Shown in pieces: positions 1,749-63,397 of a stretch of 64,000 bases of DNA. Made by a program: the position numbers and the translations under genes. This stretch comes from an uncultured Holophagae bacterium (GTDB lineage: Bacteria > Acidobacteriota > Thermoanaerobaculia > Thermoanaerobaculales > Sulfomarinibacteraceae). The stretch is from NCBI GenBank assembly GCA_963714385.1, contig CAVQOJ010000002.1, positions 326,528 to 390,527 on the forward strand, given 5' to 3'. Each line of letters begins with the position of its first letter. Positions within the stretch are counted from its first letter, which is position 1. The notes under the pieces are model-generated. The model searched no databases, was not told the DNA's origin, and saw only the letters and a list, made by a program, of their open reading frames with translations.

Positions 1749-3811
1749 CCGATCTCCCGGATCGGTCCACGCGCCGCTACCGGATCGACTACCAGGGCGA
1801 GCTCAACCCGGAGCAGCTGCGGGTGGTCATGCATCCCGGCGGCCCGATGTTGGCCTTGGCCGGAGCTGGAACCGGCAAAACCCGGACCCTGGTCTATCGA
1901 GCGTGTCGTCTCATCGAGGACGGCGTGCCGCCGGCGCGAATCCTGTTGCTGACCTTCACCAACAAGGCGGCGCGGGAGATGCTGGACCGGGTGGAACATC
2001 TGGTGGAAGGCACCGCCGGCCGGGTCACCGGGGGAACGTTTCACTCCGCCGGCCATCGAATTCTCCGCCGGCACGCCTCCCTCCTCGGATACTCGGAGAG
2101 ATTCTCGATCCTCGACCGGGAGGACGCCACCGATCTCATGGGCCAGGCCCTGTCCGACCTGAGCCCCGACCTCCCCAAGCGTCGAACCCCCAGGCCCCGG
2201 CTGCTGCTGGACATCTACAGCTTCGTGATCAACACCGGCCGTGAGCTCGAGCAGGTGTTGTTGGAGCGGGCCCCCCAGTACGTCGATCAGGGTGAGGCCA
2301 TGGCCGCCGTCTTCCGGCGCTACCTGGAACGCAAACGCCAGGCCGACGCGATGGACTTCGACGACCTCCTGCTCAACTGGCTGTTGCTGCTGACCCGGCA
2401 GCCGGCGGTGCGCAGGGAGCTGGCGGAGCGCTTCCTCCACATTCTGGTGGACGAGTACCAGGACACCAACCGGCTGCAGGCGGACATCGTCGACGGAATG
2501 TTGGGAACAGACAAGAACGTGATGGTCGTGGGCGACGACGCCCAGTCGATCTACGGCTTCCGCGGCGCCGAGTTCGCCAACATCCTGGGGTTTCCCGAAC
2601 GCCATCCGGAGTGCGAGATCTTCAGGCTGGAGACCAACTATCGGTCGACGCCGAAGATCCTCGACCTGGCCAACGCGTCCATCGTTCACAACAAGAACCA
2701 GTTCCGCAAGGAGCTGCGGGCGGTCCGCAGCGCGGGCGAGCCTCCGACCGTGGTCTCGGTGCCCACCCCCGAACGGCAGGCAAGCTGGGTGGCCGAGCGA
2801 ATCCTCGAGCTGCGCGAGGAGGGCATCGACCTCGAGGAGATCGCGGTCCTTTATCGAAACCACTCCCACTCCCTCGACCTCCAGGTTGAGCTCACCCGGC
2901 GCAACATCCCGTTCCGGGTCCGATCGGGCCTCCGGTTCTTCGAGCAACGCCACATCAAGGACGTGCTGTGTCACCTCAGGGTGATCGACAACCCTCGCGA
3001 CGAGGTCGCCTTCGTCCGCGCCGTCAAGCTGCGCCCGGGATTCGGGCCGAGGCTGGCCGGGCGCCTGTGGGATCGCATGTCCGGCGCCGACCCTCTCGCC
3101 CGGCTCGCCGCCCTCGACCATGCGACCCTCGGACTGCGGGGGGCGGCCCGAGGACCGTTCTCCGACCTCCAGCTGTTGATGCAGGACCTCCAGGCGGAGC
3201 CGCTCGCCCGGCAGCCCGGCGAGTCGCTGCGTTTGGTGGTCGACCGCTTCTACCGGCAGTGGGCGCGCGACAACCTGGACAACGCCGGGTCGCGGCTGGA
3301 GGATCTCGAGCAGCTCGCTCTCTATGCCGACTCCTACCCCGACGTCAACACGTTCCTCGCCGAGGTGACCCTGCTCAACGACCTGTCGGGTGAGGATGCC
3401 GTCGGCGGCCCTCCGGACGAGGTCCTGACCCTCTCCACGACCCACCAGGCCAAGGGGCTCGAGTGGAGGGTGGTGTTCGTCATCTGGCTCTCCGAAGGCC
3501 GTTTCCCCACGGTCCGCGCGGAGGACGAGGAGGAGGAGCGCCGCCTGTTCTACGTGGCGGCCACCAGAGCCAGAGACCTGCTCTTCTTGGTCCACCCCTC
3601 CATCGCCCGCGACCGCTACCGGGTGGATGTGGTGATCAGCCCTTCCCGTTTCCTGCTCGAGCTGCCCGCCGACGTCTCCGACAAGCTCACGGTCGCCGAC
3701 GACCTGCGGGAAAATGCCCTGGACGCTCTCCCGGAAGAGCTGAGGTACCGCCTGCCGGCGTTCCTGGAACCGTCACCGGCCGATGGCGACGACAACGAAG
3801 GGGTGAACTGA
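1745..3811 (+). CDS. UvrD/PcrA/Rep-family ATP-dependent DNA helicase
   Basis: 688-aa ORF with Walker A AGAGTGKT, motif II VDEYQDTN, GDDAQSIYGFRGA, ETNYRST, TTHQAKGLEW. Confidence 0.9.
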   Translation: MTDLPDRSTRRYRIDYQGELNPEQLRVVMHPGGPMLALAGAGTGKTRTLVYRACRLIEDGVPPARILLLTFTNKAAREMLDRVEHLVEGTAGRVTGGTFHSAGHRILRRHASLLGYSERFSILDREDATDLMGQALSDLSPDLPKRRTPRPRLLLDIYSFVINTGRELEQVLLERAPQYVDQGEAMAAVFRRYLERKRQADAMDFDDLLLNWLLLLTRQPAVRRELAERFLHILVDEYQDTNRLQADIVDGMLGTDKNVMVVGDDAQSIYGFRGAEFANILGFPERHPECEIFRLETNYRSTPKILDLANASIVHNKNQFRKELRAVRSAGEPPTVVSVPTPERQASWVAERILELREEGIDLEEIAVLYRNHSHSLDLQVELTRRNIPFRVRSGLRFFEQRHIKDVLCHLRVIDNPRDEVAFVRAVKLRPGFGPRLAGRLWDRMSGADPLARLAALDHATLGLRGAARGPFSDLQLLMQDLQAEPLARQPGESLRLVVDRFYRQWARDNLDNAGSRLEDLEQLALYADSYPDVNTFLAEVTLLNDLSGEDAVGGPPDEVLTLSTTHQAKGLEWRVVFVIWLSEGRFPTVRAEDEEEERRLFYVAATRARDLLFLVHPSIARDRYRVDVVISPSRFLLELPADVSDKLTVADDLRENALDALPEELRYRLPAFLEPSPADGDDNEGVN

Positions 3812-3838
3812 TTTCGGGATTCGGGATTCGGGAAACCG
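3811..3838. repeat. heptad array (GATTCGG-type), ~4 units
   Basis: atttcgg gattcgg gattcgg gaaaccg starting at the helicase stop, between convergent genes. Confidence 0.85.
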
Positions 3839-3849
3839 TGATTGGTTGG

Positions 3850-4916: not shown

Positions 4917-5297
4917 ATGGCAGTCACAGCCTTGAACAACGAGAACATCCAACCCACCATCGAGAACAACGACATCGTGGTGATCGATTTCTGGGCCTCG
5001 TGGTGCGGCCCGTGCCAGGCCTTCAAGCCGGTCTTCGAAGCGGCGTCCGAAAAGCACGACGGAGTGACCTTTGGGTCGGTCAACACCGAGGAGGAGATCG
5101 AGCTCGCGTCGATGTTCCAGATTCGGTCGATCCCGACCCTGGTCGTCTTCAGGGACCAGATCCCGATCTTCGGCCAGCCCGGAATGCTGCCGGCCGAGGC
5201 CCTCGACGAGCTGATCGCCAAGGTCAAGGAGCTCGACATGGACGAGGTCCGCGCCCAGGTCGAAGAGCAGAAAGCCGCGGCGACCGCGCAGGCGTAA
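4917..5297 (+). CDS. trxA: thioredoxin
   Basis: 126 aa with WASWCGPC active-site motif and typical thioredoxin length. Confidence 0.9.
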   Translation: MAVTALNNENIQPTIENNDIVVIDFWASWCGPCQAFKPVFEAASEKHDGVTFGSVNTEEEIELASMFQIRSIPTLVVFRDQIPIFGQPGMLPAEALDELIAKVKELDMDEVRAQVEEQKAAATAQA

Positions 5298-5303
5298 CCA
5301 CAC

Positions 5304-6188
5304 GAGTTAGGAGTTAAACGTCACACGTTAAACGTTCGGTTCATCCGGAATTCTGTGAGGTGGGGGTCGATCATTTTCGGATTTCACAACGGCACCCGCC
5401 CGCCCGAAGAGGAACCGCGGTTTCATCGCGGAGACAGCCATCAGGGACAGCGTCAGAATCCAGCGGCAGGGACCCGCGGCAGCGTCAGTTGACAGCGTCA
5501 GTATCGGAGTACCGGGTGCGCTCAGATGGGATTGAGCAGGCGCCACGTCATCGCACGAACTTGGTCAAAGGTCTCCAGGGCATTCTCTGCCCCGATTCCA
5601 TTGACTGCACCAGCGGCGGCGAGGAGTCGCAGGTGGCTGTCGACCTCTTTGGCCGAGGCGTAGGCGATCCGCCAGTGGTGCTGGCGGTCTCTTCCGAATC
5701 GGCCGTGTCCTTCCGCCAGGTTTGCCGGGACCGAGCTTGCCGATCGGATCACCTGATCGGCAATCGATTTCAAAGGGGCGGGAACCCTCATCACGAGCTT
5801 GATAGCTACGCCTGCTGCTTCGAGGGCTTTCTCGAGGGCTGCGAGGTTGGTGTTCGTGACGGCTTTGGACATGGTCACCTCCGGGTCGTTCATGCCCTCC
5901 CCCACAAGCCGGTGAGGCAGCCGATGTCAAGGGTGTGTAACACCGGACCCGTGGGCCGGCTTGCCCTTGACATCGGCTGCCCACCGGCCATTCGTTCCTT
6001 TGAACGACCCGGAGGTGTCCATGTGCTACACGGCCAAGGCAACTGTTTGCTGCCGCTGAAGACTGATCGCTGTCCCTGCTCGCTGTTCCCTGTCGCCGCC
6101 CCTGAATTCTGTCGCTGCCGCCGCAATTCGGGAACGGGAACGGCAACACCCCAACCACACGTTTTCCCGGATGAGCCAAACGTAAAAC
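5304..6188 (-). mobile_element. foldback element copy 1 carrying a four-helix-bundle gene (heptad arms + 18-bp inverted termini + long imperfect internal inverted repeats)
   Basis: Termini aacgttcggttcatccgg (5331-5348) and ccggatgagccaaacgt (6167-6183) are reverse complements. Outer heptads gagttag gagttaa acgtcac acgttaa (5304-5338). Homologous end-to-end to 22980..24019 in inverse orientation. No transposase. Confidence 0.6.
5522..5872 (-). CDS. four-helix-bundle protein (23S rRNA intervening-sequence protein / Avd-like family)
   Basis: MSKAVTNTNL...VMRVPAPLKSIADQVIRSASSVPANLAEGHGRF...AKEVDSHLRL, typical of the family. Start chosen at the ATG preceded by GGAGGTGACC. ~93% identical to the 23325..23675 product. 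Confidence 0.8.
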   Translation of the reverse strand: MSKAVTNTNLAALEKALEAAGVAIKLVMRVPAPLKSIADQVIRSASSVPANLAEGHGRFGRDRQHHWRIAYASAKEVDSHLRLLAAAGAVNGIGAENALETFDQVRAMTWRLLNPI

Positions 6189-6202
6189 CTCTATCAGGCT
6201 GC

Positions 6203-6222
6203 AATCTTCAATCTTCAATTCC
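6203..6222. repeat. heptad array (AATCTTC)n
   Basis: aatcttc aatcttc aattcc immediately outside foldback element copy 1. Confidence 0.8.
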
Positions 6223-9650: not shown

Positions 9651-9661
9651 GTCCGAGATAC

Positions 9662-9825
9662 GAATTGAAAATTACAAATTGAAAATTGAAAATTTGCCCC
9701 CGCCCACCCTTTGCGAACTGCAATTACGAAATCGGGTGTGCCGTGCTTGAAGGTGCCCTTCTCCGCCGACCTCGGTAGACGCCAATTTGTAATTTGTAAT
9801 TTGTAATTTGTAATTTGTAATTTCC
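9662..9825. repeat. hairpin-type heptad element (arms GAAAATT/ACAAATT vs AATTTGT x5)
   Basis: Left arm 9662-9696 is the reverse complement of right arm 9784-9825 (five perfect aatttgt units). The core begins with cccccgcccaccc and ends with ccgacctcggtagacgcc. Lies between convergent genes. Confidence 0.9.
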
Positions 9826-9834
9826 TCCTCTGCC

Positions 9835-20521: not shown

Positions 20522-20586
20522 GCGGTCTGGGCGATCGGGCGATGTGCTGGTCGCTAGTCGCTGGTCGCTGGACCCCCGCCCGCCCC

Positions 20587-20732
20587 ATTGCGAATTACGA
20601 ATTGCGAATTGACCGCCTGCCGAGTCCGCCGAGGTGAATCCAGGTGTTTCTCGACGTTAGAAGACACTTCGAGGCAGTCGCCACGATCTCGGACGTCAAC
20701 AATTCGTAATTCGCAATTCGTAATTCGCAATC
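20587..20732. repeat. AATTCGY hairpin element (heptad arms + conserved core)
   Basis: Left arm attgcgaattacgaattgcgaattg (20587-20611). Core accGCCTGCCGAG...gatCTCGGACGtcaa. Right arm aattcgt aattcgc aattcgt aattcgc (20700-20732), the reverse complement of the left arm. Confidence 0.9.
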
Positions 20733-20815
20733 AATCGGCAGGGCCGGCACGCCGCGCACTGCGAGACCCCGCACTCGATGTGTAGAATACCCCCCACGCT
20801 TTTTGAGGAGGTCCC

Positions 20816-22852: not shown

Positions 22853-22868
22853 GGCACCTCGTGCCCGA

Positions 22869-22942
22869 GTTGAAAGTTGAAAGTTGAAAGTTCCCGCCCA
22901 CCCTCCCTCTCGGGCGGGCGGAGAGATCTTCAATCTTCAATC
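22869..22942. repeat. heptad arrays (GTTGAAA x3 ... ATCTTCA x2) around a C-box/G-box palindrome
   Basis: gttgaaa x3 (22869-22892), cccgcccaccctccctctcgggcgggcgg, then atcttca atcttca atc (22926-22942). Confidence 0.9.
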
Positions 22943-22979
22943 ACCGCCACCAGCAGACAGCCGTCGGCCAGTCCGTGAA

Positions 22980-24019
22980 CGGTTAAGAGTTACACGTTAA
23001 ACGTTAAACGTTTGGTTCATCCGGGAAAGCGTGAGGTCGGTTCTTCCGATCCCGTTCCCGACGAAAAATCCAGCGTCAGGGTCAGGGTCAGCGTTCAGTG
23101 GCAGTAGCCGGGGCAGGTTACAGCGGACAGCGACTGGGGCCGGATGCAGCGATCAGGTGTGCGGCGGCTGCATGGTCCCCTCCGGGTCGTTCACGGGGTG
23201 AATGGGCATAGCTGGCGAGGGGGCCGGAGTCAAGGGCGCAATGCGGCCGGCCTAGGGGTGGTAAACCCTTGACACCGACCCCCTCACCAGCATTCGGGTG
23301 AGCATGAACGACCCGGAGGTGACCATGTCCAAAGCCGTCGGAAACACCAATCTCGTCGCCTACACCAAGGCGCTCGAAGCAGCAGGCATAGCCATCAAGC
23401 TCGTCATGAGAGTTCCCGCCCCTCTAAAATCGGTTGCCGATCAGGTGATCCGGTCGGCGAGTTCGGTCCCCGCCAACCTGGCGGGAGGACACGGCCGATT
23501 CGGAAGAGACCGCCAGCACCACTGGCGGATCGCCTATGCCTCGGCCAAAGAGGTCGACAGCCACCTGCGACTCCTCGCCGCCGCTGGTGCAGTCAATGGA
23601 ATCGGGGCAGAGAACGCCCTGGAGACCTTTGACCACGTTCGTGCGATGACGTGGCGCCTGCTCAATCCCATCTGAGCGCGCCCGGTTCTCCGATACTGAC
23701 GCTGTCAACTGACGCTGCCGCGGGTCCCTGCCGCTCCTAAGTAACTGGCCGTCGGTCCTGAGTTACTTCCCCGTTGTCTCCCACGGCAACGCGGGTGCGA
23801 TGCTGGTTTCTGACGCTGTCCCTGATTGCTGTTTCCGCGGATGAAGCCGCGGTTCCTCTTCGGGCGGGCGGTGCCGTTCCAAAATCCGACGTTGACCGAC
23901 CTCCACCTCACGGAATTCCGGATGAGCCAAACGTTAAACGTATGAGGAACCTCGGCGGCACAAACCACCGAGAACGGTCGCGTCGACGTTTAACGTGTAA
24001 CGAGTAACGTGTAACGCTG
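22980..24019 (+). mobile_element. foldback element copy 2 carrying a four-helix-bundle gene
   Basis: Termini aacgtttggttcatccgg (23008-23025) / ccggatgagccaaacgt (23918-23934). Heptad arms acggtta agagtta cacgtta aacgtta (22980-23014) and gacgttt aacgtgt aacgagt aacgtgt (23985-24019). ~70-bp insertion (about 23735-23807) relative to copy 1. Lies 150 bp upstream of tRNA-Gly. Confidence 0.6.
23325..23675 (+). CDS. four-helix-bundle protein (23S rRNA intervening-sequence protein / Avd-like family)
   Basis: 116 aa from the ATG preceded by GGAGGTGACC. Near-identical paralogue of 5522..5872. Confidence 0.8.
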   Translation: MSKAVGNTNLVAYTKALEAAGIAIKLVMRVPAPLKSVADQVIRSASSVPANLAGGHGRFGRDRQHHWRIAYASAKEVDSHLRLLAAAGAVNGIGAENALETFDHVRAMTWRLLNPI

Positions 24020-26116: not shown

Positions 26117-26266
26117 CGCCCACCCACCGCGCCACCCATTGCGAATTGCGAATTGCGAATTGCGAATTCTGGCCTGCCGAGACCGTCACCGAGCAAAGCA
26201 CAACGACCTCGGACGCCGACAATTCGTAATTCGCAATTCGCAATTCACAATGGGGCGGGCGGGAGG
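26117..26266. repeat. AATTCGY hairpin element, shortest and most symmetric copy, flanked by C-box and G-box
   Basis: cgcccacccaccgcgccaccc | attgcga x4 (26138-26169) | tgGCCTGCCGAGaccgtcaccgagcaaagcacaacgacCTCGGACGCCGAC | aattcgt aattcgc aattcgc aattcac (26221-26251) | ggggcgggcgggagg. Confidence 0.9.
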
Positions 26267-26291
26267 CGGTACCCTGGTGGCCGGAGGGTCC

Positions 26292-26663: not shown

Positions 26664-26776
26664 TCGGTACCACGCATCTCACCGTTGCAGGGCTTTTCCA
26701 ACGGCTCCGAAGGTTCGCGGCAGGGTGCAACAACGAGATACGTTGCACGGGAACGGGAATCCAGCAACGCCGCCGC

Positions 26777-26825
26777 CTACTGCCTACTCCCCACTGCCTA
26801 CTGCCTACTCCCTACTGCCTGTTGC
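26777..26825. repeat. heptad array (CTACTGC/CTACTCC)n, 7 units, GC-richer family
   Basis: ctactgc ctactcc ccactgc ctactgc ctactcc ctactgc ctgttgc, between convergent genes. Confidence 0.9.
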
Positions 26826-27383: not shown

Positions 27384-27560
27384 ATGATCGAGGAGCGACA
27401 CGCCATGGACACTCACTTCACCGGGGTATTCCAACAGGTTGACCGAGGCTGGATCGGATATGTGGAGGAGCTGCCCGGGGCCAATACCCAGGGCAGCACC
27501 CTCGAATTCGGTACCAGGTCAGAGGATCTTGGGATGTTGCGCCCTGGTCGACCGCATTGA
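27384..27560 (+). pseudogene. HicB-like (UPF0150) antitoxin N-terminal fragment
   Basis: FTGVFQQVDRGWIGYVEELPGANTQGSTLE matches the HicB N-terminal beta-sheet motif (..GY.a.vPeLPGc.tqG.TlEEa). Similarity stops exactly where the 18-bp inverted repeat starts (27510). Confidence 0.35.
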
Positions 27561-27596: not shown

Positions 27597-27640
27597 GGAG
27601 ATTGTAATCTGCTGGTGTCGGCGAGTTCGGGATTCGGGGA

Positions 27641-37629: not shown

Positions 37630-37682
37630 GTCTAAAGTCTAAGGTCAAAAGTCAAAAGTCAAAAGTCAAAAGTCGAAAGTCA
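37630..37682. repeat. heptad array (GTCAAAA)n, 7-8 units
   Basis: gtctaaa gtctaag gtcaaaa x4 gtcgaaa gtcagg. The last unit contains the stop codon (tca 37680-37682) of the upstream GT2 gene. Confidence 0.9.
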
Positions 37683-38696: not shown

Positions 38697-38756
38697 CGAT
38701 GGCCCTCCCCGTCAGATGAGCGCACGTCGAATGTCACAAAGGCAGGATAACCCCGG

Positions 38757-38885
38757 CCACCCACCCATTACGAATTACGAATTTCGAATTGCGAATTGTC
38801 GACGTCCGAGGGCGGGTGTGCCGGGGTCCATCCACGACCTCGGCAGGCCGGAATTCGTAATTCGGAATTCGTAATTCGCAATTTT
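38757..38885. repeat. AATTCGY hairpin element with core in inverted orientation
   Basis: ccacccaccc | attacga attacga atttcga attgcga attg | tcGACGTCCGAGggcgggtgtgccggggtccatccacgacCTCGGCAGGCcg | gaattcg taattcg gaattcg taattcg caatttt. Confidence 0.9.
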
Positions 38886-38923
38886 ACTCTGGGTTGGAGG
38901 GGACCTTCGAATCTGGACATCGA

Positions 38924-40107: not shown

Positions 40108-40211
40108 GTCCAAAGTCTGAAGTCAAAAATCCAAAGTCCGAAGCATCCGTGGTGCGAGTAGGAAGTCGATGGTTGAACGTCGAAAGTTGAAAGTCGAATG
40201 TTGAAAGTTGG
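40108..40211. repeat. two heptad arrays (GTCNAAA x5; GTTGAAA/GTCGAAA x5)
   Basis: gtccaaa gtctgaa gtcaaaa atccaaa gtccgaa (40108-40142). gttgaac gtcgaaa gttgaaa gtcgaat gttgaaa (40172-40211). Confidence 0.9.
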
Positions 40212-40260: not shown

Positions 40261-40428
40261 GAAACGGCTCACTCGTTCGGTGTTCGCGTCGGGCGTCGGC
40301 CGAGATGGCCCAGACTTGTCCTGAGCGAGCGAAGCGAGTCGAACGGATTCCTCTTCGGCCCGAAGCCTGTCCCGAGCGAGGCGCCCACAAGGCGCCGATG
40401 AGGGAGCCCTCATTCGGAATGACAGCCA
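40261..40428 (+). repeat. family B repeat, longest copy
   Basis: gaaacggctcactcgttcgg...gtcctgagcgagcgaagcgagtcgaacggattcctcttcggccc...ccctcattcggaatgacagccagc. Confidence 0.85.
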
Positions 40429-40447
40429 GCGCACGTACCGATTTTTT

Positions 40448-40595
40448 GAATTCCGAATTCCGAATTCCGAATTCCGAGTTCCGAATTTCCCCCTCCCCTT
40501 CTCCCCTTCTCTCCTTCTCCTTGACGAACACACGGCCTCCCATTTTTCAATTTGTAATTTTCAATTTGTAATTTTCAATTGGGTGGGCGGGTGGG
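40448..40595. repeat. heptad array (GAATTCC x6), polypyrimidine tract, heptad array (AATTTGT/AATTTTC x5) and G-quadruplex-type box
   Basis: gaattcc x4 gagttcc gaatttcc (40448-40490). ccctccccttctccccttctctccttctcc. atttttc aatttgt aattttc aatttgt aattttc aatt (40542-40580). gggtgggcgggtggg (40581-40595). Confidence 0.9.
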
Positions 40596-40598: not shown

Positions 40599-41213
40599 TT
40601 ATTCGCACCACCCCTGCAGGTCGGCGAGCTCCAGGAGGACGACCCGGTAAGCCGGAGCGTACGCGGCCACGTACGTGTCGCTGTGGTGTGCCGGAGGGTA
40701 ACCCTTCTCGGCCAACCGGGCGGTCAGGTCCTCGAGCTGGCCGGCCAGCTGGTACCGGCTTCGGCGGACGAGCCGGGGCACCGCCCTGGCGAGCTCCCGG
40801 TCCATGGTGGTCGGGTCTCCCGGGGCGGCCTCGGCGCTCGCGATGAACGCAGTCAGCAGAGCCGACGGATCGCCGCCGGCTGCCAGATACGGCCGCAGGT
40901 GGATCCTCACCATGGCCGGATCGCCGCCGAGGGGTTGGCACAACAGATCCTGGACCGCCGCCGGACGCAGGGCCGCCACCTCAGAATCGAGGTAGCGGGC
41001 TGCCGCGTCGGGGTCCTCGATCGCGTGGCCGGGGCCGAAGACCCCCTGGTGGATAAACTTGTAGACGTCGGTCGCGCCCAGCTCCGGGTGGAGCCGGAGC
41101 TCCTCGTCCAGAGCCACCATCACGGCGTCGCCGCCGGCGGGCGGTTCCTGTGCCGCCACACCGCCGATCACCAGGAGGGCCAGCAGGAAAGCAACCATCA
41201 ATCGTCGGTTCAT
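40599..41213 (-). CDS. secreted hypothetical protein
   Basis: 204 aa with signal peptide MNRRLMVAFLLALLVIGGVAAQE. Start overlaps the HD-gene stop (4-nt overlap). No family recognised. Confidence 0.55.
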   Translation of the reverse strand: MNRRLMVAFLLALLVIGGVAAQEPPAGGDAVMVALDEELRLHPELGATDVYKFIHQGVFGPGHAIEDPDAAARYLDSEVAALRPAAVQDLLCQPLGGDPAMVRIHLRPYLAAGGDPSALLTAFIASAEAAPGDPTTMDRELARAVPRLVRRSRYQLAGQLEDLTARLAEKGYPPAHHSDTYVAAYAPAYRVVLLELADLQGWCE

Positions 41214-45313: not shown

Positions 45314-45360
45314 CCCCCACACACCCATTGCATATTGCAAATTGAAAATTGCAGATTTCC
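45314..45360. repeat. C-box + heptad array (ATTGCAA-type x5)
   Basis: cccccacacaccc | attgcat attgcaa attgaaa attgcag atttcc. Confidence 0.9.
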
Positions 45361-45382: not shown

Positions 45383-47254
45383 TCAATCTTGAACCGTGGT
45401 CTCCAGGCGGTAGTCGAGGGTGTCCAGCGTGGCTGTGACCTGGGCCTCGTAAGCACTGCCAAAGACCATGTCCTCGAGCCGCTTCGACACCGGCATCACC
45501 ACCGGGAAACCCTCCCAGGGGACCGGCTCCCCGGTGGCGGCATCGATGACCCGGCCTTCATCCACCGCGCGACTCGCCTCCGCCAGCGGCAACCCCTCGA
45601 GCGCCCGCCGATACGCCCGGAACCGGGCCTCGTGCTCCGGGCGCACGAAGCGCACCATCCGCCGGCTCTGGGTTGCCACGTGATAGCTGGAGGGGCTGTG
45701 GGAGAGCCCGTCGAGCTCGAGCTTCTCGCACACCACCACCAGCCAGCCGAGCACCTCCTTGAGCATCCCGAGGCCCGGGTAGGTCTGGCCCGGCAGAGGC
45801 TGGCGATAGGGACCGAAATGGGCGCGCGGATTCTGCAGCAGCAACCACTCCACCGCCAGTAGGTCGAGACCCTTCAGCTGCCTCGTCGTGCGGTGGACCC
45901 GGAGCTCCATCAACAGCTCGGATCGGTCGAGGCCGCCGAAGATGCGGATCGTCTGCCCCAGCGGATGACTCAGGTCCACGTCCACCGTCGGATGGGCGAA
46001 GCCGCACATGCGCAGCCGATCGAGGATCCCGAACTTCTCCAACATCAGCTCCACGCCGTGTCGGGAAAAAAAGCCCAGGAACCGCGTCTCGTGCACCGCC
46101 TCGGGCAGGATCCCCGCCAGGTCCTCCTCCGAGAAGTTCCAGGAGAAGTCGTTGGGCTCGGCAGTCAGGCTCGACGGCTCCAAGGTCGCCCAGATCCTAC
46201 GGAATCGCCGCAGCACGAGCTGCTCGTTATCCGGCGGCTCGACGTTCTTATTGGTCAGCCTCCAGGCCAGGAATCGCGCCGTGTACTTCCAGGACTCGAC
46301 GCCGTAGCCGCCACCGAGGACCACCACAACCGGAACCGCGCGGCCCCGGCCGCGGACCAGCTCCATCACGAACTGATCCCGTCTCAGCATGCCGTCCGGT
46401 GACAGCCGCCAGCCGCCGAGAGCGTCATCGGCAGCACCGTCCGTCCCTGCGACGTAGATCACCAGCCCCGGCCGCACCGAGTCCACGACGTCCGGCAGGG
46501 TCTTCAGCAGGGTGCCGAGCAGGAGCTCGTCGCCAACCTCGAGCCCCAGGGCGAGATCGGTGGAGGCCACCGCGTCCGGTTCACTCCAGTGCTCGGCGTG
46601 GATCGAGTAGGTATGGACCGACGGATCCCGGGCGAAGATGGACCGGGTGCCATCGCCGTCGTGCATATCGAGGTCGATCACCAGCACCGGGTCTTTGAAA
46701 CCCTTGGCCCGGAGGCGGGCGATGGCCACCGCCACATCGTTGAACAGGCAAAAGCCGCCCCCCGCATCTCGACGGGCGTGGTGCAGCCCCCCACCCAGGT
46801 TCACCGCCACCCCCCGGTTGGCAAGTGCCAGGATGGTGCCGAGGATGGTGCCGCCAACCATCATTCGTTGCATTTCGACCACGTTCTCCATCAGGTCATC
46901 GGCGACCGAGGCGCCGAAGATCCTCAGCGCGGTCTCGCGAAACTGCAACGACTCGAGGTACTCGGCATCGTGAACGCGCAACAGGTTGCGCAGCGAGGGG
47001 TGGCGTGGCACCCGGATGTCCTCGCTCAGCAGGAGCCCCTCGTCCGCCAGGAACGACAGCACCCGCTGAGCGCGCAGGTGATCGAGGGGAACGGCGTCAA
47101 GGCTGCCCCCGTAGGCCTCGTGGTAGACGAATCGAACACCGTGCCACCACCACTTTCGCCGGAACCGGCGCCACCGGCTCCGGACCGCCCGCGCAGCCCG
47201 GCAGGCGAGCGACTGCTTGGCCTGTGATTCATTCTCGGTGTCGGGCGCCGCCAT
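45383..47254 (-). CDS. histone-deacetylase-family (class II-like) deacetylase fused to an uncharacterised ~290-aa C-terminal domain
   Basis: 623 aa from ATG 47254. GGLHHARRDAGGGFCLFNDVAVAI, DLDMHDGDGT, GGGY motifs in the N-terminal half. The C-terminal half has no motif I recognise. Upstream part of track ORF 45383..47611 is repeat-derived. Confidence 0.8.
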   Translation of the reverse strand: MAAPDTENESQAKQSLACRAARAVRSRWRRFRRKWWWHGVRFVYHEAYGGSLDAVPLDHLRAQRVLSFLADEGLLLSEDIRVPRHPSLRNLLRVHDAEYLESLQFRETALRIFGASVADDLMENVVEMQRMMVGGTILGTILALANRGVAVNLGGGLHHARRDAGGGFCLFNDVAVAIARLRAKGFKDPVLVIDLDMHDGDGTRSIFARDPSVHTYSIHAEHWSEPDAVASTDLALGLEVGDELLLGTLLKTLPDVVDSVRPGLVIYVAGTDGAADDALGGWRLSPDGMLRRDQFVMELVRGRGRAVPVVVVLGGGYGVESWKYTARFLAWRLTNKNVEPPDNEQLVLRRFRRIWATLEPSSLTAEPNDFSWNFSEEDLAGILPEAVHETRFLGFFSRHGVELMLEKFGILDRLRMCGFAHPTVDVDLSHPLGQTIRIFGGLDRSELLMELRVHRTTRQLKGLDLLAVEWLLLQNPRAHFGPYRQPLPGQTYPGLGMLKEVLGWLVVVCEKLELDGLSHSPSSYHVATQSRRMVRFVRPEHEARFRAYRRALEGLPLAEASRAVDEGRVIDAATGEPVPWEGFPVVMPVSKRLEDMVFGSAYEAQVTATLDTLDYRLETTVQD

Positions 47255-47284
47255 GGGGCGAGTATAGCTGCAGCGGTGGGAGAT

Positions 47285-47381
47285 CCCCCGCCCACCCTGT
47301 TGAAAGTTGAAAGTTGAAAGTTGAAAGTTCCCGCCCACCGAATTGAAAATTACAGATTGCAAATTGAAAATTGAAAATTGG
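47285..47381. repeat. C-box, GTTGAAA x4, C-box, GAAAATT-type x6
   Basis: cccccgcccaccct | gttgaaa x4 gtt | cccgcccacc | gaattga aaattac agattgc aaattga aaattga aaattgg. Confidence 0.9.
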
Positions 47382-47659
47382 GAGACGGTACGCTCGTCAA
47401 GGGGAGAAGGGGAGGTGGGAATTCGGAACTCGCCGACGGCAGCAGCCCACAGCCGTGGCCATGGGGGTCGTCGCGAGGCGCCGTGAGACCAGCCGACAAA
47501 GCCGGCGCGTGGCGAACGGCGTCCCGAGGAGCAACGCGACGAGGGAGCTGGGGCTGGCCTACGGCTGTCTGCTGGTGGCGGTGAGTCGCCGCGGCCAGCG
47601 GCCGCGAGCAATTCTGAAAACCCCTCTCTACGATTCTGGTTGCCTCATAGCCCCATGGC

Positions 47660-47694
47660 TTTTGACTTTTGACTTTTGACTGGGGTTGGGTGGG
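47660..47694. repeat. heptad array (TTTTGAC x3) + G-box
   Basis: ttttgac ttttgac ttttgac tggggttgggtggg, ending 4 nt before the TraB-family gene stop. Confidence 0.9.
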
Positions 47695-47697: not shown

Positions 47698-48693
47698 TCA
47701 GAGCTGCTCGACGGTGTAGCCCTTGCTCCTCAGCATCTCGATCACGCCATCGTCGCCGACCAGGTGGAGAGCCCCGACCACCACGAACGCCGGCTCGGCG
47801 CCGGCGAGCAGCTCTTCGAGTCGCGGCAGCCACGTCGCGTTGCGGTCGCTGACCATCGTTTTGAACAGCTCCGGAAACTGGAGAAATCCCTCCACCAACA
47901 ACGCCCCGGCCTCCTCCACCCGACCGTTCCGCCAGTGATCGACAAGCTCATCCACCATGGGGATCACCGTGTCCAGCTCGCGCACGGTCTGGAGCAAAAA
48001 GGCCTCGTCCTGCTCCCTGGACAACCCTGCCAGGAGACTCAACTGAAACTCGACGGTCTCCAGGCCCTGGACCGTCTTGCCGCCATCCCTCGCCCGCCGA
48101 TAGAGGTACCTATCGACGCCGTCGGTGGGCGAGTAGCCCGCGCCCTGCAGCTCGGTCAGGGCGAGGGTGGTCGCAACCATCCACGGTCGCATCCCCTGCA
48201 TGCCGTCGAAATCGAGTCCGCTCTCGGTCGCACGCCGCTCCGCAAGCTTCCAGGTTTCGTCGGAAACCACCTCCCGCAGACTCGTTCCCTCGGGCAGCAT
48301 GCCTGCGGCGAGGGCCCCGAAGGCCGCCGCCGCGGTGCCCTCGGCGCCCAGATCTACCTCGAAGACCGCAACCGACGACACCTCGAACGCCGTCTCGATC
48401 TCCTCCGCGAGAGGGTAGGCTTCGGGCCTCATGAGATGCACCGACCCGAGGAGGTACAGGGTGGCGGTGGCCGACCGGGCCCGCCACAGGCAGTGCTTGC
48501 CAGCGTGAGTCGCGGCGAGTGTTTCCTGCCCGAACGCAGCAGGCATCGCGGCGGCCATCAAGCCACCCCACACGATGATCGAACCCACGGTCGCAAGCCG
48601 CCGACTTCGGGTGCCGCGATTCCCGTCGCGCCCGATCAGCATTTTCGGGTCATCCGGACGCCGGTCCTGCAGCAGCATCACCTTCATGACCAC
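47698..48693 (-). CDS. TraB/GumN family protein (secreted)
   Basis: [17 protein letters not shown]..., [13 protein letters not shown] motifs of the family. Signal-like [25 protein letters not shown]. True start possibly ATG 48642. Confidence 0.7.
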
Positions 48694-49264: not shown

Positions 49265-49303
49265 GGGGGTCGACAGCCGCCCTGACCCTGGTCCTCCATT
49301 AGA

Positions 49304-49407
49304 AATTGCGAATTGCGAATTGCGAATTCGGGCCATCCAAGATCGCGGGTGCTCATTTCCAAAGGGGTCGGCAGGCGGCCAATTCGTAATTCGTCATTCG
49401 TAAATCG
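49304..49407. repeat. AATTCGY hairpin element, degenerate core in inverted orientation
   Basis: aattgcg x3 aattcg | ggccatccaagatcgcgggtgctcatttccaaaggggtCGGCAGGCggc | aattcgt aattcgt cattcgt aaatcg. Between convergent ppiB and rnhA. Confidence 0.9.
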
Positions 49408-49427
49408 AACCCGAGGGAGCGCGGTCG

Positions 49428-51193: not shown

Positions 51194-51256
51194 GATCCAA
51201 GATCGAAGATCAAAGATCAAAGGACGGTTTCTGAAATTTTGAATTCCGAATTCCGC
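51194..51256. repeat. two heptad arrays (GATCAAA x4; GAATTCC-type x3)
   Basis: gatccaa gatcgaa gatcaaa gatcaaa (51194-51221). gaaattt tgaattc cgaattc cgc (51233-51256). Confidence 0.9.
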
Positions 51257-51433
51257 TTTCAGCCGGCCGAGGGTCCTCTGCCCTTCTCACCTCCTCACCT
51301 TTTCATTTCTTCTCTTCTTCCCCTCCGCACCTCTGCCCTCCTTCACGGAGATGCGAACCCGGCGATTCGCTTCCCGTATACTCCCAGACGTCCCTGAGAG
51401 GATTCGACAAACCGCCAACAAGGGAGATCTTCC

Positions 51434-52594
51434 ATGCCGACGACTCGCCGTGATTTCATCCAGCTGTCGGCCCTCGCCGGCGCCGCCGGCATGGGCCTTG
51501 CCGCCGATGCGGCCTCGACATCGTCCCCGATCGGTCGCGCCACCAAGCCGCTCTCGATCCTGGTGCTCGGTGGCACCGGTCTGATCGGCCCCCCCATGGT
51601 GGCCCACGCCATCGAACGCGGCCACGAGGTGACGCTGTTCAACAGAGGGAAAACGAATACCCAGCTCTTTCCCGATCTGGAGAAAATCCAAGGGGACCGA
51701 AACGACGACCTGTCGGCGCTTGCGGCGGCGATTGAGGCGGGCCGGAAGTGGGACGTGGTGATCGACAACACCGCCATGATCCCGCGCTGGGTTCAGGAAA
51801 GTGCCGGCCTGCTCAAAAACAGCGCCGGTCTCTATCTCTACACGTCGTCGATTTCGGCGTACGCCGACGCCTCGAAACCGGGACAAGACGAAACGGCCCC
51901 GGTGGGCCAGATTTCCGACGACGAGACGGCAGCCGTGAAGACCAACCGCGACATCACCGGCGAGAACTACGGCCCGCTCAAGGCCCGCTGCGAAAAAGCC
52001 GCCGAGGATGCGTTTCCCGGGCACTGCATCGTGGTCCGGCCCGGGCTCATCGTCGGACCGGGCGACTACTCGGACCGCTTCACCTACTGGCCCGTCCGGA
52101 TTCACCGAGGCGGCGAGGTCATGGCCCCCGGCAACCCGACCGATCCGGTGCAGTTCATTGACTGCCGCGACCTGGGCGAGTGGTACATCCGGTTGGTGGA
52201 GGACAACGCGGTTGGCGTCTACAACGGCACCGGACCGGCGTCGGCATTGTCGATCGCCGAGATGCTCTACGGCATCCGGGCCACCACCTCTGCAGCCGTG
52301 TCCTTCACCTGGGTGCCCACCGACTTCCTCAAGGAGCACGATGTGGCGGAGTGGTCAGAGATGACCGTGTGGCTGCCGCCGGAAGGCGAGGACGCCGGCA
52401 TTTCCAGCGTTAGCATCGCCCGGGCGATCGCCGCCGGCCTGACCTTCCGCCCTCTCGCCACCACCGCCTTCGACACCGTCGAGTATTGGAACTCGTTGCC
52501 GGAGGATCGCAGGGCCGCGCCGCGGGCCGGGCTCGACCCCGACAAGGAAAAGGCTGTGCTCGCAGCTTGGCACGCGGCACAACGCAGTTCTTAA
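51434..52594 (+). CDS. Tat-signal NAD(P)-dependent epimerase/dehydratase-family (atypical SDR) protein
   Basis: Twin-arginine signal MPTTRRDFIQLSALAGAAGMGLAA. VLGGTGLIGPPMV Rossmann motif. Confidence 0.75.
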   Translation: MPTTRRDFIQLSALAGAAGMGLAADAASTSSPIGRATKPLSILVLGGTGLIGPPMVAHAIERGHEVTLFNRGKTNTQLFPDLEKIQGDRNDDLSALAAAIEAGRKWDVVIDNTAMIPRWVQESAGLLKNSAGLYLYTSSISAYADASKPGQDETAPVGQISDDETAAVKTNRDITGENYGPLKARCEKAAEDAFPGHCIVVRPGLIVGPGDYSDRFTYWPVRIHRGGEVMAPGNPTDPVQFIDCRDLGEWYIRLVEDNAVGVYNGTGPASALSIAEMLYGIRATTSAAVSFTWVPTDFLKEHDVAEWSEMTVWLPPEGEDAGISSVSIARAIAAGLTFRPLATTAFDTVEYWNSLPEDRRAAPRAGLDPDKEKAVLAAWHAAQRSS

Positions 52595-52705
52595 TTCTGA
52601 GTTCTGAGTTCTGAGTTCTGAGTTGCACACGGTCTCAAGTTCTCGAATCGCCGAGGGCCTTCCGGGGATGGAACTCAAAACTAAGAAATAAGAACTAGGA
52701 ACTCG
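52587..52705. repeat. imperfect hairpin element with GTTCTGA arms
   Basis: gttctta attctga gttctga x3 gttgc (52587-52626; contains the taa stop of the upstream gene at 52592-52594). Core with ccgagggccttccgggg. Imperfect complementary arm gaactca aaactaa gaaataa gaactag gaactcg (52671-52705). Confidence 0.85.
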
Positions 52706-52719
52706 TACGGCACTGGAGA

Positions 52720-54036
52720 ATGATGCTGAAACGTTTTCTCGAGAAGGTGGTGAATGTCAGTGACGAGGAGGTCTCCTCGCTGCTGCTGTCCACCCTCTAC
52801 TTCTTCCTGCTCTTCGCGGGGTACTTCATCATCCGGCCGCTGCGCGACGAAATGGGCATGCTCGGCGGAGTTCGAGACCTGGCATGGCTGTTCACCGGCA
52901 CCTTGGTGGGAATGCTCGTGGTCCACCCGATCTACACCGCGATGGTGGCACGCTTGCCTCGCCGCCGGTTCATTCCGCTGATCTACCGGTTCTTCGCGGC
53001 CAACCTGCTGCTCTTCTTCATCCTGATTCGAGTCGTGCCCACCGAGCACCACCTCTGGATCGCCCGGGTCTTCTTCATCTGGACCAGCGTTTTCAACCTG
53101 TTCGTGGTTTCGGTGTTTTGGTCGTTCATGGCCGATGTCTTTCGCCCCGACCAGGCCAAACGGCTGTTCGGGTTCATCGCGGTGGGCGGGACCCTGGGCG
53201 CGGTCGTCGGATCGGCAACGACGGCCTTTCTCGCCGAACGCATCACGCCGGTCAACCTGCTGCTGGTGACGGTGGTTCTCCTGGAGGGAGCCGTGCAGTG
53301 CTCCCGTCGAATCCAAGGAGAGTCCACGGCCAACCTCCCGACCCCCGATCATCCGAAGTCGGACCCGGAGGCCGCGATCGGCGGCGGCGTGCTGGCAGGA
53401 ATCGCCGCGGTCATCCGGTCACCCTACCTGCTGGGGATCTGCGCGTACCTGTTCTGCTACACCATCACCGCCACCTTCCTCTACTTCCAGCAGGCCGAGA
53501 TCGTGCCGGCGACCTTCGGCGACGATCGAGCCGCCCGCACGGTCTTTCTGGCTCGGATCGACCTGGCGGTGAACTCGCTCACCGCCCTGGCCCAGATCTT
53601 CGTCACCGGCCGCGTCCTCAAAAGGCTCGGGGTGGCGGTGTCGCTGGCCGTGCTGCCGGTGGTGTGCGCGGCAGGTTTCCTCACCCTCGCCGCAATGCCC
53701 ACCCTGGCCGCCCTCGCCACTTTTCAGATCCTCCGCAAGACCTCGAACTACGCCATCTCGAGACCGGGCCGCGAAGTCCTTTTCACGGTGCTTCCCCGCG
53801 AGCAGAAGTACAAGGCCAAGAACCTGATCGACACCTTCGTCTACCGGGCCGGCGACCAGGTCGGAGCCTGGTCCTACGCCGCCGCCCGCGGGTTGGGGCT
53901 GGCGATGACCGGGCTTTCCATGGCGGCGGTCCCGATCTCGGCCGTCTGGCTCGCCGTCGCCGTCTGGCTCGGACGTCGGCAGCGGCGACTGGAAGACACT
54001 TCCCGCCCGCCCGGCCAGTTGAAAGTTGAAGGTTGA
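52720..54036 (+). CDS. MFS-type transporter (Npt1/Npt2 / TLC-like family)
   Basis: 438 aa, ~12 TM. N-terminus VSSLLLSTLYFFLLFAGYFIIRPLRDEMG typical of this family. The last 6 codons (QLKVEG*) are encoded by a heptad array. Confidence 0.7.
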   Translation: MMLKRFLEKVVNVSDEEVSSLLLSTLYFFLLFAGYFIIRPLRDEMGMLGGVRDLAWLFTGTLVGMLVVHPIYTAMVARLPRRRFIPLIYRFFAANLLLFFILIRVVPTEHHLWIARVFFIWTSVFNLFVVSVFWSFMADVFRPDQAKRLFGFIAVGGTLGAVVGSATTAFLAERITPVNLLLVTVVLLEGAVQCSRRIQGESTANLPTPDHPKSDPEAAIGGGVLAGIAAVIRSPYLLGICAYLFCYTITATFLYFQQAEIVPATFGDDRAARTVFLARIDLAVNSLTALAQIFVTGRVLKRLGVAVSLAVLPVVCAAGFLTLAAMPTLAALATFQILRKTSNYAISRPGREVLFTVLPREQKYKAKNLIDTFVYRAGDQVGAWSYAAARGLGLAMTGLSMAAVPISAVWLAVAVWLGRRQRRLEDTSRPPGQLKVEG

Positions 54037-54063
54037 AAGTTGAAAGTCGAAAGTTGAAAGTCG
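54002..54063. repeat. C-box + heptad array (GTTGAAA-type x7)
   Basis: cccgcccgccc ggcca | gttgaaa gttgaag gttgaaa gttgaaa gtcgaaa gttgaaa gtcgg. Overlaps the MFS gene end and stops 15 nt before the ridA ATG. Confidence 0.9.
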
Positions 54064-63274: not shown

Positions 63275-63293
63275 AGGGCGACCAGACTGCCGA

Positions 63294-63397
63294 AATTACG
63301 AATTACGAATTGTTGTCTACCGAGGTCGCAGGGGGAAATTGAATACGACCTCGGACGACAAAAATTCGCAATACGCAATTCGCAATTCGTAATTCGC
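63294..63397. repeat. AATTCGY hairpin element with extended palindromic core
   Basis: aattacg aattacg aattg | ttgtctaCCGAGGTCGcagggggaaattgaataCGACCTCGGacgacaaa | aattcgc aatacgc aattcgc aattcgt aattcgc. Followed by ggccgggagggtgtgcggg. Confidence 0.9.

Follow-up and report, generated by a model that had tools for sequence, protein, structure and literature searches.

Why should one and the same repeat period, seven nucleotides, recur throughout the intergenic spacers of a bacterial chromosome when the repeated sequence itself varies? The question is raised by a stretch of 64,000 nucleotides from an uncultured Holophagae bacterium (assembly GCA_963714385.1, contig CAVQOJ010000002.1, positions 326,528 to 390,527 of the forward strand), here called the window, for which a preliminary description had reported more than 30 short tandem arrays. 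The window is ordinary chromosome and about 83% coding, with a GC content of ~66% in the host genome and 67% in the window genes. On balance, and with considerable reserve, we consider it probable that these arrays are heptanucleotide microsatellites that are maintained by slippage, that reside in part on small intergenic elements resembling repetitive extragenic palindromic (REP) sequences and miniature transposable elements with inverted repeats (MITEs), and that are retained at gene 3′ ends.

The arrays were counted with Tandem Repeats Finder (TRF), as exact arrays of at least three copies, and in a tolerant scan requiring at least 12 of 14 matches at a given lag; Markov and composition-matched shuffles served as controls. 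TRF returned about 50 rows of period 7, spanning 3813–63397. Thirteen exact arrays were found at period 7 and none at periods 5, 6 or 8–15, with none expected from the shuffles. At period 7 the tolerant scan detected 38 arrays, compared with a single array at period 8 and no array over the range 9–12; the 11 detected at period 6 are mostly in-frame repeats of coding sequence, eight lying within genes. Together with seven weaker arrays, recognized by TRF or by eye, the total comes to 45, distributed over 23 spacers. The autocorrelation of non-coding DNA peaks at lags 7, 14, 21 and 28 (0.358, 0.312, 0.295 and 0.271, over a baseline of ~0.25), and coding DNA shows 3-periodicity only. The arrays have 2.4–6.9 copies and a length of 20–48 nt, occur at ~60–70 per 100 kb (about one per 1.5 kb) and make up 16% of the non-coding bases. 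None of the 38 lies more than half inside a called gene, despite the high coding fraction, and overlap is limited to gene ends (3810, 37680, 52588 and 54016–54036). Array GC is 36%, compared with 67% in genes; GCTGGTC at 20546 and GCCTACT at 26775 are GC-rich exceptions. Spacers also contain repeats with a period of 8–10 nt, namely CTCCCCTT at 40493–40520 and CGCAGA- and CACAGA-cored decamers at 33870–33946. The number of arrays first reported, the specific enrichment of period 7 within the window, the avoidance of coding sequence except at gene ends and all of the unit families originally listed (found again by TRF and the tolerant scan) are thus confirmed. The claim that almost every spacer carries an array applies to the longer spacers, about 20 of 24 of at least 120 nt, but not to those of at least 40 nt, of which 22 of 39 have one. 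The units are AT-rich as described, apart from the two GC-rich arrays.

Arrays of this kind are not confined to the window. The nearest public genomes are metagenome-assembled genomes (MAGs) of uncultured Acidobacteriota labelled Holophagae or Thermoanaerobaculia, and period-7 arrays are present in 39 of 76 clade loci, with a density of 15.3 per 100 kb overall and, in locus L126, 18 arrays over 22 kb. The outgroup loci have a density of 4.3 per 100 kb, to which a single Lentisphaeria lineage contributes nearly all arrays. The closest relative locus, L001, encodes a GlgP with 90% amino-acid identity and is extensively syntenic with the window. Exact-protein look-ups with three window proteins gave no match, and a metagenome scan gave no relative closer than L001; strain-level copy-number polymorphism is therefore demonstrated in the loci of relatives and not in the window itself. 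Near-identical locus pairs (96.7–99.7% identity) differ by 7- or 14-nt insertions or deletions in their arrays: 7-nt differences occur in (GACCTGA)n between L008 and L126 and in (GAGTTTT)n between L087 and L124, and a 14-nt difference occurs in (GAATGAG)n between L017 and L099. Two orthologous arrays of the window and L001 have the same flanks, differ in copy number and have one base changed in every unit, (GTCAAAA)5 compared with (GTCGAAA)3–4 in L001 and (ATTGCAA) compared with (ATTGCGA). A change of every unit between conserved flanks is concerted evolution in place. The arrays thus grow, shrink and homogenize in place by whole units, as slipped-strand mispairing or unequal exchange predicts. 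They are also gained and lost as blocks: the divergent spacer between MalQ and GlgP measures 268 nt and holds two arrays in the window but is ~63 nt long and holds neither in L001.

The units are diverse, with at least 21 distinct ones in the window and 56 in the relatives, but most are related. When rotation and strand are allowed for, 34 of the 45 consensus units form one network of single substitutions with the consensus AATTGMR, i.e. AATTG[C/A][A/G]. In 200 trials with random unit sets of the same composition, the largest network had 32 members and none reached 34, which suggests that the array units share common descent. At least 18 arrays are combined into nine inverted pairs with close spacing, each of which folds into a long hairpin with the arrays as its arms. 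Measured against dinucleotide shuffles, the fold z of paired arrays on the + strand ranges from −3.5 to −10.3, except for the degenerate A3 (−1.1), and reaches −11.9 on the − strand; single arrays have z values of ~0 to +1 and are unstructured. By alignment, six of the nine pairs (A1–A6), together with the L001 copies, are homologous copies of one palindromic element, termed type A, with the layout (CGAATTG)n, GCCTGCCGAG, variable loop, CGATCTCGGACGNCGA, (CAATTCG)n and a length of 110–170 nt. Its conserved core is asymmetric and occurs in both orientations, and its sequence was found in the window and L001 only. The arms of A1 are 100% complementary across 24 nt. A7, a seventh CGAATTG-type pair with AATTGAA/AATTTGT arms, was left out of the type-A alignment. 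The second kind of element, a module of A-array, GC hairpin and T-array, is represented by B1, which lies 13 nt past the OPT stop codon and is absent from the same site in L001. A 34-nt block is common to 22866–22902 and the composite array at 47297. The C-rich box CCCRCCCACC abuts many arrays (51 matches compared with 27 expected; six of ten exact copies adjoin arrays). A large share of the arrays are arms or tails of small dispersed non-coding elements. These comprise the palindromic type A, the modules of A-array, GC hairpin and T-array, and the terminal inverted repeats that bound a small gene cassette described below. In the preliminary description, the constant period with variable sequence had been taken to indicate a period-dependent process rather than a single mobile sequence. 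A period-dependent process does act in place, but the second half of that statement went too far, given the single network and the many arrays within dispersed elements.

Two properties of the hairpins were considered as clues and dropped. Asymmetry of G·U pairing or of strand stability, as a sign of selection at the RNA level, was uninformative: the strands differ by up to 14 kcal/mol, but with no consistent direction relative to transcription, and the mismatches of A2 are symmetric by inspection. The orientation of the type-A core relative to transcription offers only about five informative copies, which is too few. In an Rfam search at both thresholds, two tRNAs alone scored above the gathering threshold, and no match with E ≤ 1 overlapped an array.

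The position of the arrays relative to genes is not uniform. Counting gene ends that face spacers of at least 40 nt, an array lies within 45 nt of 21 of 40 gene 3′ ends but only 5 of 38 5′ ends in the window (Fisher p = 2.8e-4), so that the original impression of arrays in all spacer types alike did not hold. Among 13 cases in tandem spacers of the window, the nearest array is on the stop-codon side in 11. The bias is weaker in the relatives, where with coding-score start codons 43 of 341 3′ ends and 17 of 297 5′ ends have an array (p = 0.004), at a median distance of 17 nt to the stop codon and 55 nt to the start codon. Immediately behind the GlgP stop codon, a heptamer array is present in about 16 of 66 relatives, but its unit is of at least nine kinds; in L001, L006, L019, L126 and L143 there are inverted pairs at this site, which flank a loop or GC hairpin. 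At this site, therefore, position and architecture recur and sequence does not. Overall, the arrays accumulate in spacers, preferentially ~10–45 nt from stop codons. The genes beside them share no functional theme; products encoded in the window include UvrD, an acyl-AMP ligase, an O-antigen ligase-like protein, an ABC exporter, an OPT transporter, MalQ, GlgP, a deacetylase, a cyclophilin and a thioredoxin. A promoter scan gave three sites (2.1 expected), none in an array. TTG-containing units were considered as −35 boxes and rejected, since there is no promoter excess, no promoter lies in an array and the 3′ bias is opposed to this role.

TTG and GTG codons within arrays lengthen mechanical open reading frames (ORFs) through the repeats, e.g. 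at 26250 and 54079/54091. Similarly, the ORF 45383–47611 begins at a TTG, whereas its coding signal starts only near 47254. As the TTG codons of arrays mislead start calling, N-termini predicted by automated annotation in genomes of this kind will tend to be too long.

These observations can be joined into a mechanism. Arrays would survive only outside genes because a 7-nt insertion or deletion shifts the reading frame, and mainly at 3′ ends because no promoters are disrupted there. Paired arrays, at the RNA or DNA level, would likely act as long stem-loops, comparable to REP sequences and bacterial interspersed mosaic elements (BIMEs), by which the 3′ ends of transcripts are marked or protected, in a genome without enrichment of canonical terminators consisting of a hairpin and a U-tract (12 compared with 11.0 expected between 20 and 40 kb of the window, with one convincing terminator-like site, after tRNA-Gly). 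Either selection acting on the stem or intrastrand template switching could keep the arms complementary, and the single A-rich arrays may be tolerated tails or spacers accessible to proteins or RNases. Self-complementarity of the units was also considered as a driver of slippage; it occurs in 11 arrays compared with 5.6 (p = 0.02), but p is 0.12 for distinct units and 0.36 in the relatives, and we do not rely on it.

Several points weigh against this explanation. Slippage alone does not predict a period of 7. As far as the accounts in PMC4679880 and PMC4692102 go, the only published proposal for the 7-nt register is that ~7 nt is the stretch of DNA held by the replicative polymerase. The function of the hairpins at 3′ ends is one that we infer from sequence; the array hairpins have AT-rich stems and no U-tract, and roughly half of all arrays stand alone and lack structure. 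No transposase, no target-site duplication (judged by eye) and no autonomous copy of the dispersed elements was found in the sequence examined. Divergent spacers, too, can carry arrays: three of eight do so in the window, as do 13 of 66 in the relatives. The 3′ bias in the relatives depends on the gene caller: with a crude longest-ORF caller it disappears (28 of 277 3′ ends, 23 of 241 5′ ends), probably because a TTG inside the array is taken as start codon. Copy number is flat at 2–4 strictly matching units and falls sharply from 5 up, a shape that could reflect a length requirement, e.g. of a bound protein, and not free slippage. Finally, some relatives carry arrays of 8-nt units (45 in 817 kb, e.g. 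GACGCAGA, CACAGAGA and AGGTTAGA). Short spacer repeats in general are thus frequent in this clade, with 7 as the dominant but not the exclusive period.

The explanation that comes closest is that the arrays are a neutral by-product of mutation, i.e. functionless slippage-prone sequence that persists where it is harmless, in spacers and above all in 3′ flanks free of promoters, with hairpins that are relics of selfish MITE-like elements. It is a serious possibility, though we regard it as rather unlikely. The rapid turnover, the different content of orthologous spacers in L001, the copy-number variation between strains and the mixed functions of adjacent genes are all as expected for neutral sequence. 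The same is true of strand preference: in the window, the sense strand of the first array past a stop codon is more often A-rich than not (16:6, p = 0.05), which is weak, and the GlgP 3′ flank of the relatives follows no consistent strand rule. It is harder to see why such sequence should occupy 16% of the non-coding DNA of a compact genome, why AATT-type units persist in relatives to ~72% GlgP amino-acid identity and why the stop-proximal site recurs with different sequences but the same inverted-pair architecture. The copy-number distribution, cut off rather than geometric, is also unexpected.

A protein reading the arrays at the DNA level appears improbable. Here, a multimerizing protein with one dimer per heptad, as for the ribbon-helix-helix (RHH) protein omega/ParB, or an AT-preferring nucleoid-associated protein would mark gene boundaries or organize the chromosome. 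There is a precedent, as omega/ParB of pSM19035 needs at least four contiguous 7-bp heptads in direct or inverted arrangement (PMC9499535), and our arrays are mostly of 3–5 units with a sharp upper cut-off, occur in both arrangements and mostly share the consensus AATTGMR. The 8-nt arrays of the relatives, with their conserved cores, resemble tandem operator boxes. However, the pSM19035 heptads are plasmid-borne, lie upstream of promoters and consist of one conserved heptad with a known cognate protein (PMC9499535), none of which was found here. The diversity of units is too great for a single protein with sequence-specific recognition, the position is at 3′ ends and not at promoters, orthologous arrays change sequence freely and no candidate protein, including any RHH gene, was detected among the window proteins scanned. 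In a broader form, the 7- or 8-nt register would stem not from the replisome but from the footprint of a lineage-specific multimerizing protein that binds nucleic acid, each unit taking up one subunit or dimer and each site having ~4–5 units. Such a protein would read the stop-proximal arrays genome-wide as marks of gene boundaries or 3′ ends, with unit families co-evolving and palindromic elements spreading the sites. The 8-nt arrays and the copy-number ceiling leave room for this form, to which we likewise give little weight.

Less probable still is a platform at the RNA level, on which an RNA-binding protein, either a multimer in 7-nt register or of the S1/Csp/CsrA type, would control translation, decay or Rho loading. 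An analogous proposal exists for the TAACTGA repeats of Beggiatoaceae (PMC4679880). Unstructured single arrays, A-richness on the sense strand, adjoining C-rich boxes and arrays that span from a stop codon to the following start codon (52588, 54016) are consistent with such a role. On the other hand, most arrays lie far from start codons, compared with a few nucleotides for TAACTGA, the units are of many kinds, the bias toward one strand is weak and does not extend to the GlgP 3′ flank of the relatives, and paired arrays are fully base-paired and are thus not single-stranded platforms. Canonical intrinsic terminators and phase-variable (contingency) loci are very improbable. Position at 3′ ends and some hairpins would suit terminators, and simple sequence repeats (SSRs) do cause phase variation in pathogens (PMC4679880), but the stems are not followed by U-tracts, terminator-like sites are not in excess, the neighbours are housekeeping genes (UvrD, MalQ, GlgP, ABC transporter, cyclophilin) and the arrays lie downstream of ORFs and not inside them or in the interval from −35 to −10 elements. 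An artefact of assembly or polishing, for which only the general difficulty of assembling repeats speaks, can practically be dismissed, since arrays of the same kinds recur across many assemblies that were made independently, in different projects and with different types of sequencing, duplicate assemblies agree fully within their arrays (L079/L104, 100%; L073/L112, 99.99%), L001 has arrays at the same sites and 20–48 nt is well inside read length.

Whichever explanation applies, the arrays are an instance of a known, unexplained class of repeats and not a new kind of system. They consist of tandem 7-nt units beyond chance, occupy many dispersed and mostly non-coding loci (45 arrays in the window; 5 of 106 arrays of the relatives lie in genes) and change copy number by whole units among close relatives (pairs of relatives' loci; L001 orthologues), which places them among the bacterial heptanucleotide SSRs, or long SSRs. 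The short tandemly repeated repetitive (STRR) sequences of heterocystous cyanobacteria, initially named as the closest analogue, are a fair comparison. Their units are CCCCAGT, TTGGTCA and CAACAGT, and their arrays can be much longer. STRR (Mazel et al. 1990, cited in PMC4692102) share with our arrays several tandem heptanucleotide units at many non-coding loci of one genome. Lineage and units differ, however; the window units are AATT-cored, and the arrays are not STRR in the strict sense, which belong to a heterocystous cyanobacterial genome and have the STRR1–3 units.

The additional suggestion that a high-GC non-cyanobacterial lineage had no described equivalent was incorrect, as heptamer repeats have been published for Burkholderia, Xanthomonas and Geobacter. 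Over-representation of heptamers across bacteria, including Burkholderia and Xanthomonas, goes back to Mrazek 2007 as summarized in PMC4679880, and heptanucleotide elements are described in Geobacter metallireducens (PMC2700814). According to the summaries of the survey of long SSRs by Mrazek, Guo & Shah 2007 in PMC4679880 and PMC4692102, SSRs of 5–11 nt are over-represented genome-wide and are prominent in large, high-GC genomes of non-pathogens, heptanucleotides are the most abundant, as here, the repeats are kept out of genes except where the unit length is divisible by 3, and an origin by slippage was proposed. As summarized there, the survey is statistical, does not cover our lineage and does not describe hairpin pairing, C-rich boxes or stop proximity.

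The best-studied comparison is with the repeats of Xanthomonas (GGGAATC) and Nostoc (GGGGAYT) reported by Rehm et al. 2015 (PMC4692102). The Xanthomonas heptamers are 89–93% intergenic, lie at a mean of 28 nt from the upstream ORF with few in divergent spacers, form ~70 inverted pairs, mostly have ~4 units, are transcribed and vary between species, and their function is not known (PMC4692102). The likeness to our arrays comprises ~4 tandem 7-nt units, intergenic location, stop proximity, inverted pairs, variation of length and sequence between related species and depletion from divergent spacers, although this depletion is moderate in the window and the relatives, and Xanthomonas is also high-GC. 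In contrast, the Xanthomonas and Nostoc units are G-rich, form G-quadruplexes and belong to one family per genome, whereas the window units are 36% GC with at least 21 variants; lacking a G-tract of at least three per unit in at least four units, they cannot form G-quadruplexes, with the possible exception of 3810–3836 (GGGATTC), the only array with GGG in each unit. The Xanthomonas genome is about 5 Mb in size. The 186 repeats per Xanthomonas genome (PMC4692102) thus correspond to roughly 4 per 100 kb, compared with ~60–70 in the window. The TAACTGA repeats, described from marine Beggiatoaceae and from some Cyanobacteria and Bacteroidetes (MacGregor 2015, PMC4679880), are likewise abundant intergenic heptamers in 2–6 copies, with unrelated housekeeping neighbours and a patchy distribution over the phylogeny. 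They have, however, a single unit in forward orientation a few nucleotides upstream of starts, for which translation control was proposed (PMC4679880), in contrast to the many units and the stop bias of the window.

Type-A elements resemble REP/BIME, REP doublets forming hairpins (REPINs) and MITEs in being dispersed imperfect palindromes that occur in both orientations, in tandem and convergent spacers and with presence or absence between relatives, and that form very stable hairpins. Terminal inverted repeats, multiple copies with a conserved core and presence/absence relative to L001 are observed. The arms of type A, however, are tandem heptamers and not a unique sequence. No GTAG-type REP motif is present in the type-A alignment, and neither that motif nor a gene for a REP-associated tyrosine transposase (RAYT) or other transposase nor a target-site duplication was found in the sequence examined, so that mobility of type A is something we infer.

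New aspects are the lineage, the combination of an AT-rich AATTGMR family with a genomic GC content of 66%, the density, which is very high, and the clear mosaic that the arrays form with hairpin elements and C-rich boxes; a full-text literature search gave no paper on such repeats in Thermoanaerobaculia among the matches listed. Over-representation of heptanucleotides in bacterial spacers has been reported since 1990 and 2007, but neither the reason for a 7-nt unit nor the function has been established. With its related units, single and hairpin-paired forms, recurring stop-proximal sites and 8-nt sister units, this lineage is an unusually rich data set. Comparative genomics of Thermoanaerobaculia could separate an origin in replisome slippage from one in a protein footprint and, together with 3′-end mapping, would also bear on whether arrays substitute for canonical terminators in high-GC bacteria. 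The individual arrays and elements are listed in Table 1.

Table 1. Heptanucleotide arrays and array-bearing hairpin elements of the window, in window coordinates; single array, entry consisting of one array; IVP, intervening sequence protein
Feature	Position (strand)	Composition	Context	Fold z
Single array	3810–3836	(GGATTCG)×3.9	overlaps UvrD stop codon, convergent spacer	
Single array	5313–5336	(GTTAAAC)×3.4	within terminal inverted repeat of IVP cassette 1	
Single array	6198–6220	(TCTTCAA)×3.3	reverse complement of GATTGAA family	
Single array	20546–20573	(GCTGGTC)×4, GC-rich	24 nt past stop codon	
Single array	22988–23014	(CGTTAAA)×3.9	within terminal inverted repeat of IVP cassette 2	
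Single array	23986–24017	(ACGTGTA)×4.6	just beyond right end of IVP cassette 2	
Single array	26775–26820	(GCCTACT)×6.6, GC-rich	18 nt past stop codon	
Single array	27776–27810	(ATTGCAA)×5	adjoins tRNA-Thr; L001 orthologue (ATTGCGA)×4	
Single array	27837–27867	(TTGAAGA)×4.4	followed by CCAGCCCACC	
Single array	28004–28035	(AAATTCG/AAATGCG)×4.6		
Single array	28100–28130	(TTCAACT)×4.4	13 nt past stop of gene 28144–29265(−)	
Single array	29327–29361	(GATTGAA)×5		
Single array	31150–31175	(ATTGCAG)×3.7	MalQ/GlgP divergent spacer, block absent in L001	
Single array	31209–31245	(GAAATTT/GAATCT)×5.3, period 7/14	same MalQ/GlgP spacer block as array at 31150	
Single array	33813–33840	(AATTCGG)×4	11 nt past GlgP stop; other heptamers there in relatives	
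Single array	34165–34201	(TTTTGAC)×5.3	18 nt past stop of gene 34220–35128(−)	
Single array	37637–37682	(GTCAAAA)×6.6	L001 orthologue (GTCGAAA)×3–4, flank conserved	
Single array	40163–40210	(GTTGAAA/GTCGAAA)×6.9		
Single array	40444–40487	(GAATTCC)×6.3	followed by CTCCCCTT polypyrimidine tract	
Single array	40544–40595	(TTTTCAA/TTTGTAA)×5.3 + GGGTGGGCGGGTGGGA (C-rich box, − strand)	18 nt past stop of gene 40599–41201(−)	
Single array	45327–45351	(ATTGCAA)×3.6	91-nt tandem spacer	
Composite	47287–47383	CCCGCCCACC box, (GTTGAAA)×5, CCCGCCCACC box, (AATTGCA/AATTGAA)×4.4	unstructured	+1.1
Single array	47655–47694	(CTTTTGA)×4.1 + GGTTGGGTGGGA	14 nt past stop of gene 47698–48693(−)	
Single array	51194–51223	(GATCAAA)×4.3	divergent spacer	
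Single array	51235–51255	(AATTCCG)×3	followed by pyrimidine-rich tract	
Single array	54016–54063	(AGTTGAA)×6.9	bridges stop of gene 52720–54036 and start codon at 54079	
A1, type A	20574–20745 (+)	(ATTGCGA)×3.7 20587–20612, core GCCTGCCGAG...CTCGGACG, (CAATTCG)×4.6 20700–20731		−5.6
A2, type A	26118–26272 (+)	(CGAATTG)×5.3 26135–26171, conserved core, (CAATTCG)×4.7 26220–26252	GC-rich clamps at both ends	−10.3
A3, degenerate type A	29370–29530 (+)	(GCGAAAT)×3.4 29377–29400, conserved core, (CAATTCG)×5.1 29487–29522	24 nt past MalQ stop	−1.1
A4, type A, flipped	38755–38890 (−)	(ACGAATT)×5.3 38763–38799, conserved core, (CGGAATT)×5 38849–38883		−6.1
A5, type A, flipped	49296–49410 (−)	(CGAATTG)×4.3 49302–49331, (TAATTCG)×3.4 49380–49403	convergent spacer	−4.1
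A6, type A	63288–63400	(AATTACG)×2.7 63294–63312, core CTACCGAGGTCG..CGACCTCGGACG, (AATTCGC)×5 63363–63397	convergent spacer	−4.7
A7, hairpin	9655–9830	(AATTGAA/AATTACA) 9659–9696, CCCGCCCACC box 9699, loop, (AATTTGT)×6 9782–9825	convergent genes	−5.9
B1, module	22860–22945	(AGTTGAA)×4 22866–22894, GC hairpin CCCGCCCACCC..GGGCGGGCGG, (ATCTTCA)×2.4 22926–22942		−3.8
C, inverted pair	52585–52706	(AGTTCTG)×5.6 52588–52626, (GAACTAA)×3.1 52682–52703	left array overlaps stop codon	−3.5

The gene cassette whose ends carry arrays is present in two copies of ~0.9 kb that are 86% identical, at 5313–6195 (−) and 22988–23960 (+). Its gene (5522–5905 and 23298–23675) encodes a PF05635 '23S rRNA intervening sequence protein' (IVP), a four-helix bundle related to Avd of diversity-generating retroelements. 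Each cassette contains an upstream palindrome (5869–6024; 23171–23327) and is bounded by ~45-nt inverted repeats made of (AACGTTT)n and GGYTCATCCGGRAA. L001 has one cassette at the same post-OPT site and another where the site in the window is empty, which suggests that the cassette is mobile.

Further repeats were observed in the spacers of the window. Polypyrimidine/polypurine tracts of the CTCCCCTT type, with a period of ~8, lie directly beside GAATTCC/AATTCGG arrays at four loci (40488–40520, 47399–47420 (−), 33967–33988 (−) and 51282–51335), and tracts and adjoining arrays may be parts of one composite element. Another dispersed spacer element of ~150 nt, containing CTCATTCGGAATGACAGC and GAGGAATCCGTTCGACTCGC, is found at 33995–34150, 40270–40440 (inverted) and 27925–27960; similar TGTCATCCTGAGCGAG...GGATC elements lie just after GlgP in L007, L012, L078, L084, L095, L141 and L148. 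In a 500-nt non-coding stretch by tRNA-Thr, 27508–27599 forms an inverted repeat with 32-nt arms of 84% complementarity and a 28-nt loop, which is unrelated to the heptamers and gave a weak chance match to a miRNA hairpin model.

The 8-nt arrays of the relatives comprise AGGTTAGA in 14 copies, GACGCAGA, CACAGAGA, CACGAAGA and GCGTCTTT, at loci including L013 13900–14013, L061 3131–7802, L091, L016 and L021. In the window, 33870–33946 has the same CGCAGA and CACAGA cores at ~10-nt spacing. Judged by their sequence, these 8- and 10-nt repeats, with a conserved core and a variable spacer, resemble an array of protein-binding sites and are distinct from the AT-rich heptamers. The Lentisphaeria MAG contigs contain very dense composite satellites of (TCGCCCC)n, (ATGAATT)n and (CATTCAG)n with a higher-order unit of ~140 nt and 23 arrays in 22 kb (L073 6176–7164 and 17521–17871; L112; L111; L034 9017–9135), so heptamer arrays with a C-rich partner unit also occur in a second, unrelated phylum. 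In L078, a Sulfomarinibacteraceae MAG, a 13-copy TGGTCAC/TGGTTAC array lies at 5105–5198; its unit is one substitution from TTGGTCA, the cyanobacterial STRR2 unit, and the similarity may be a coincidence.

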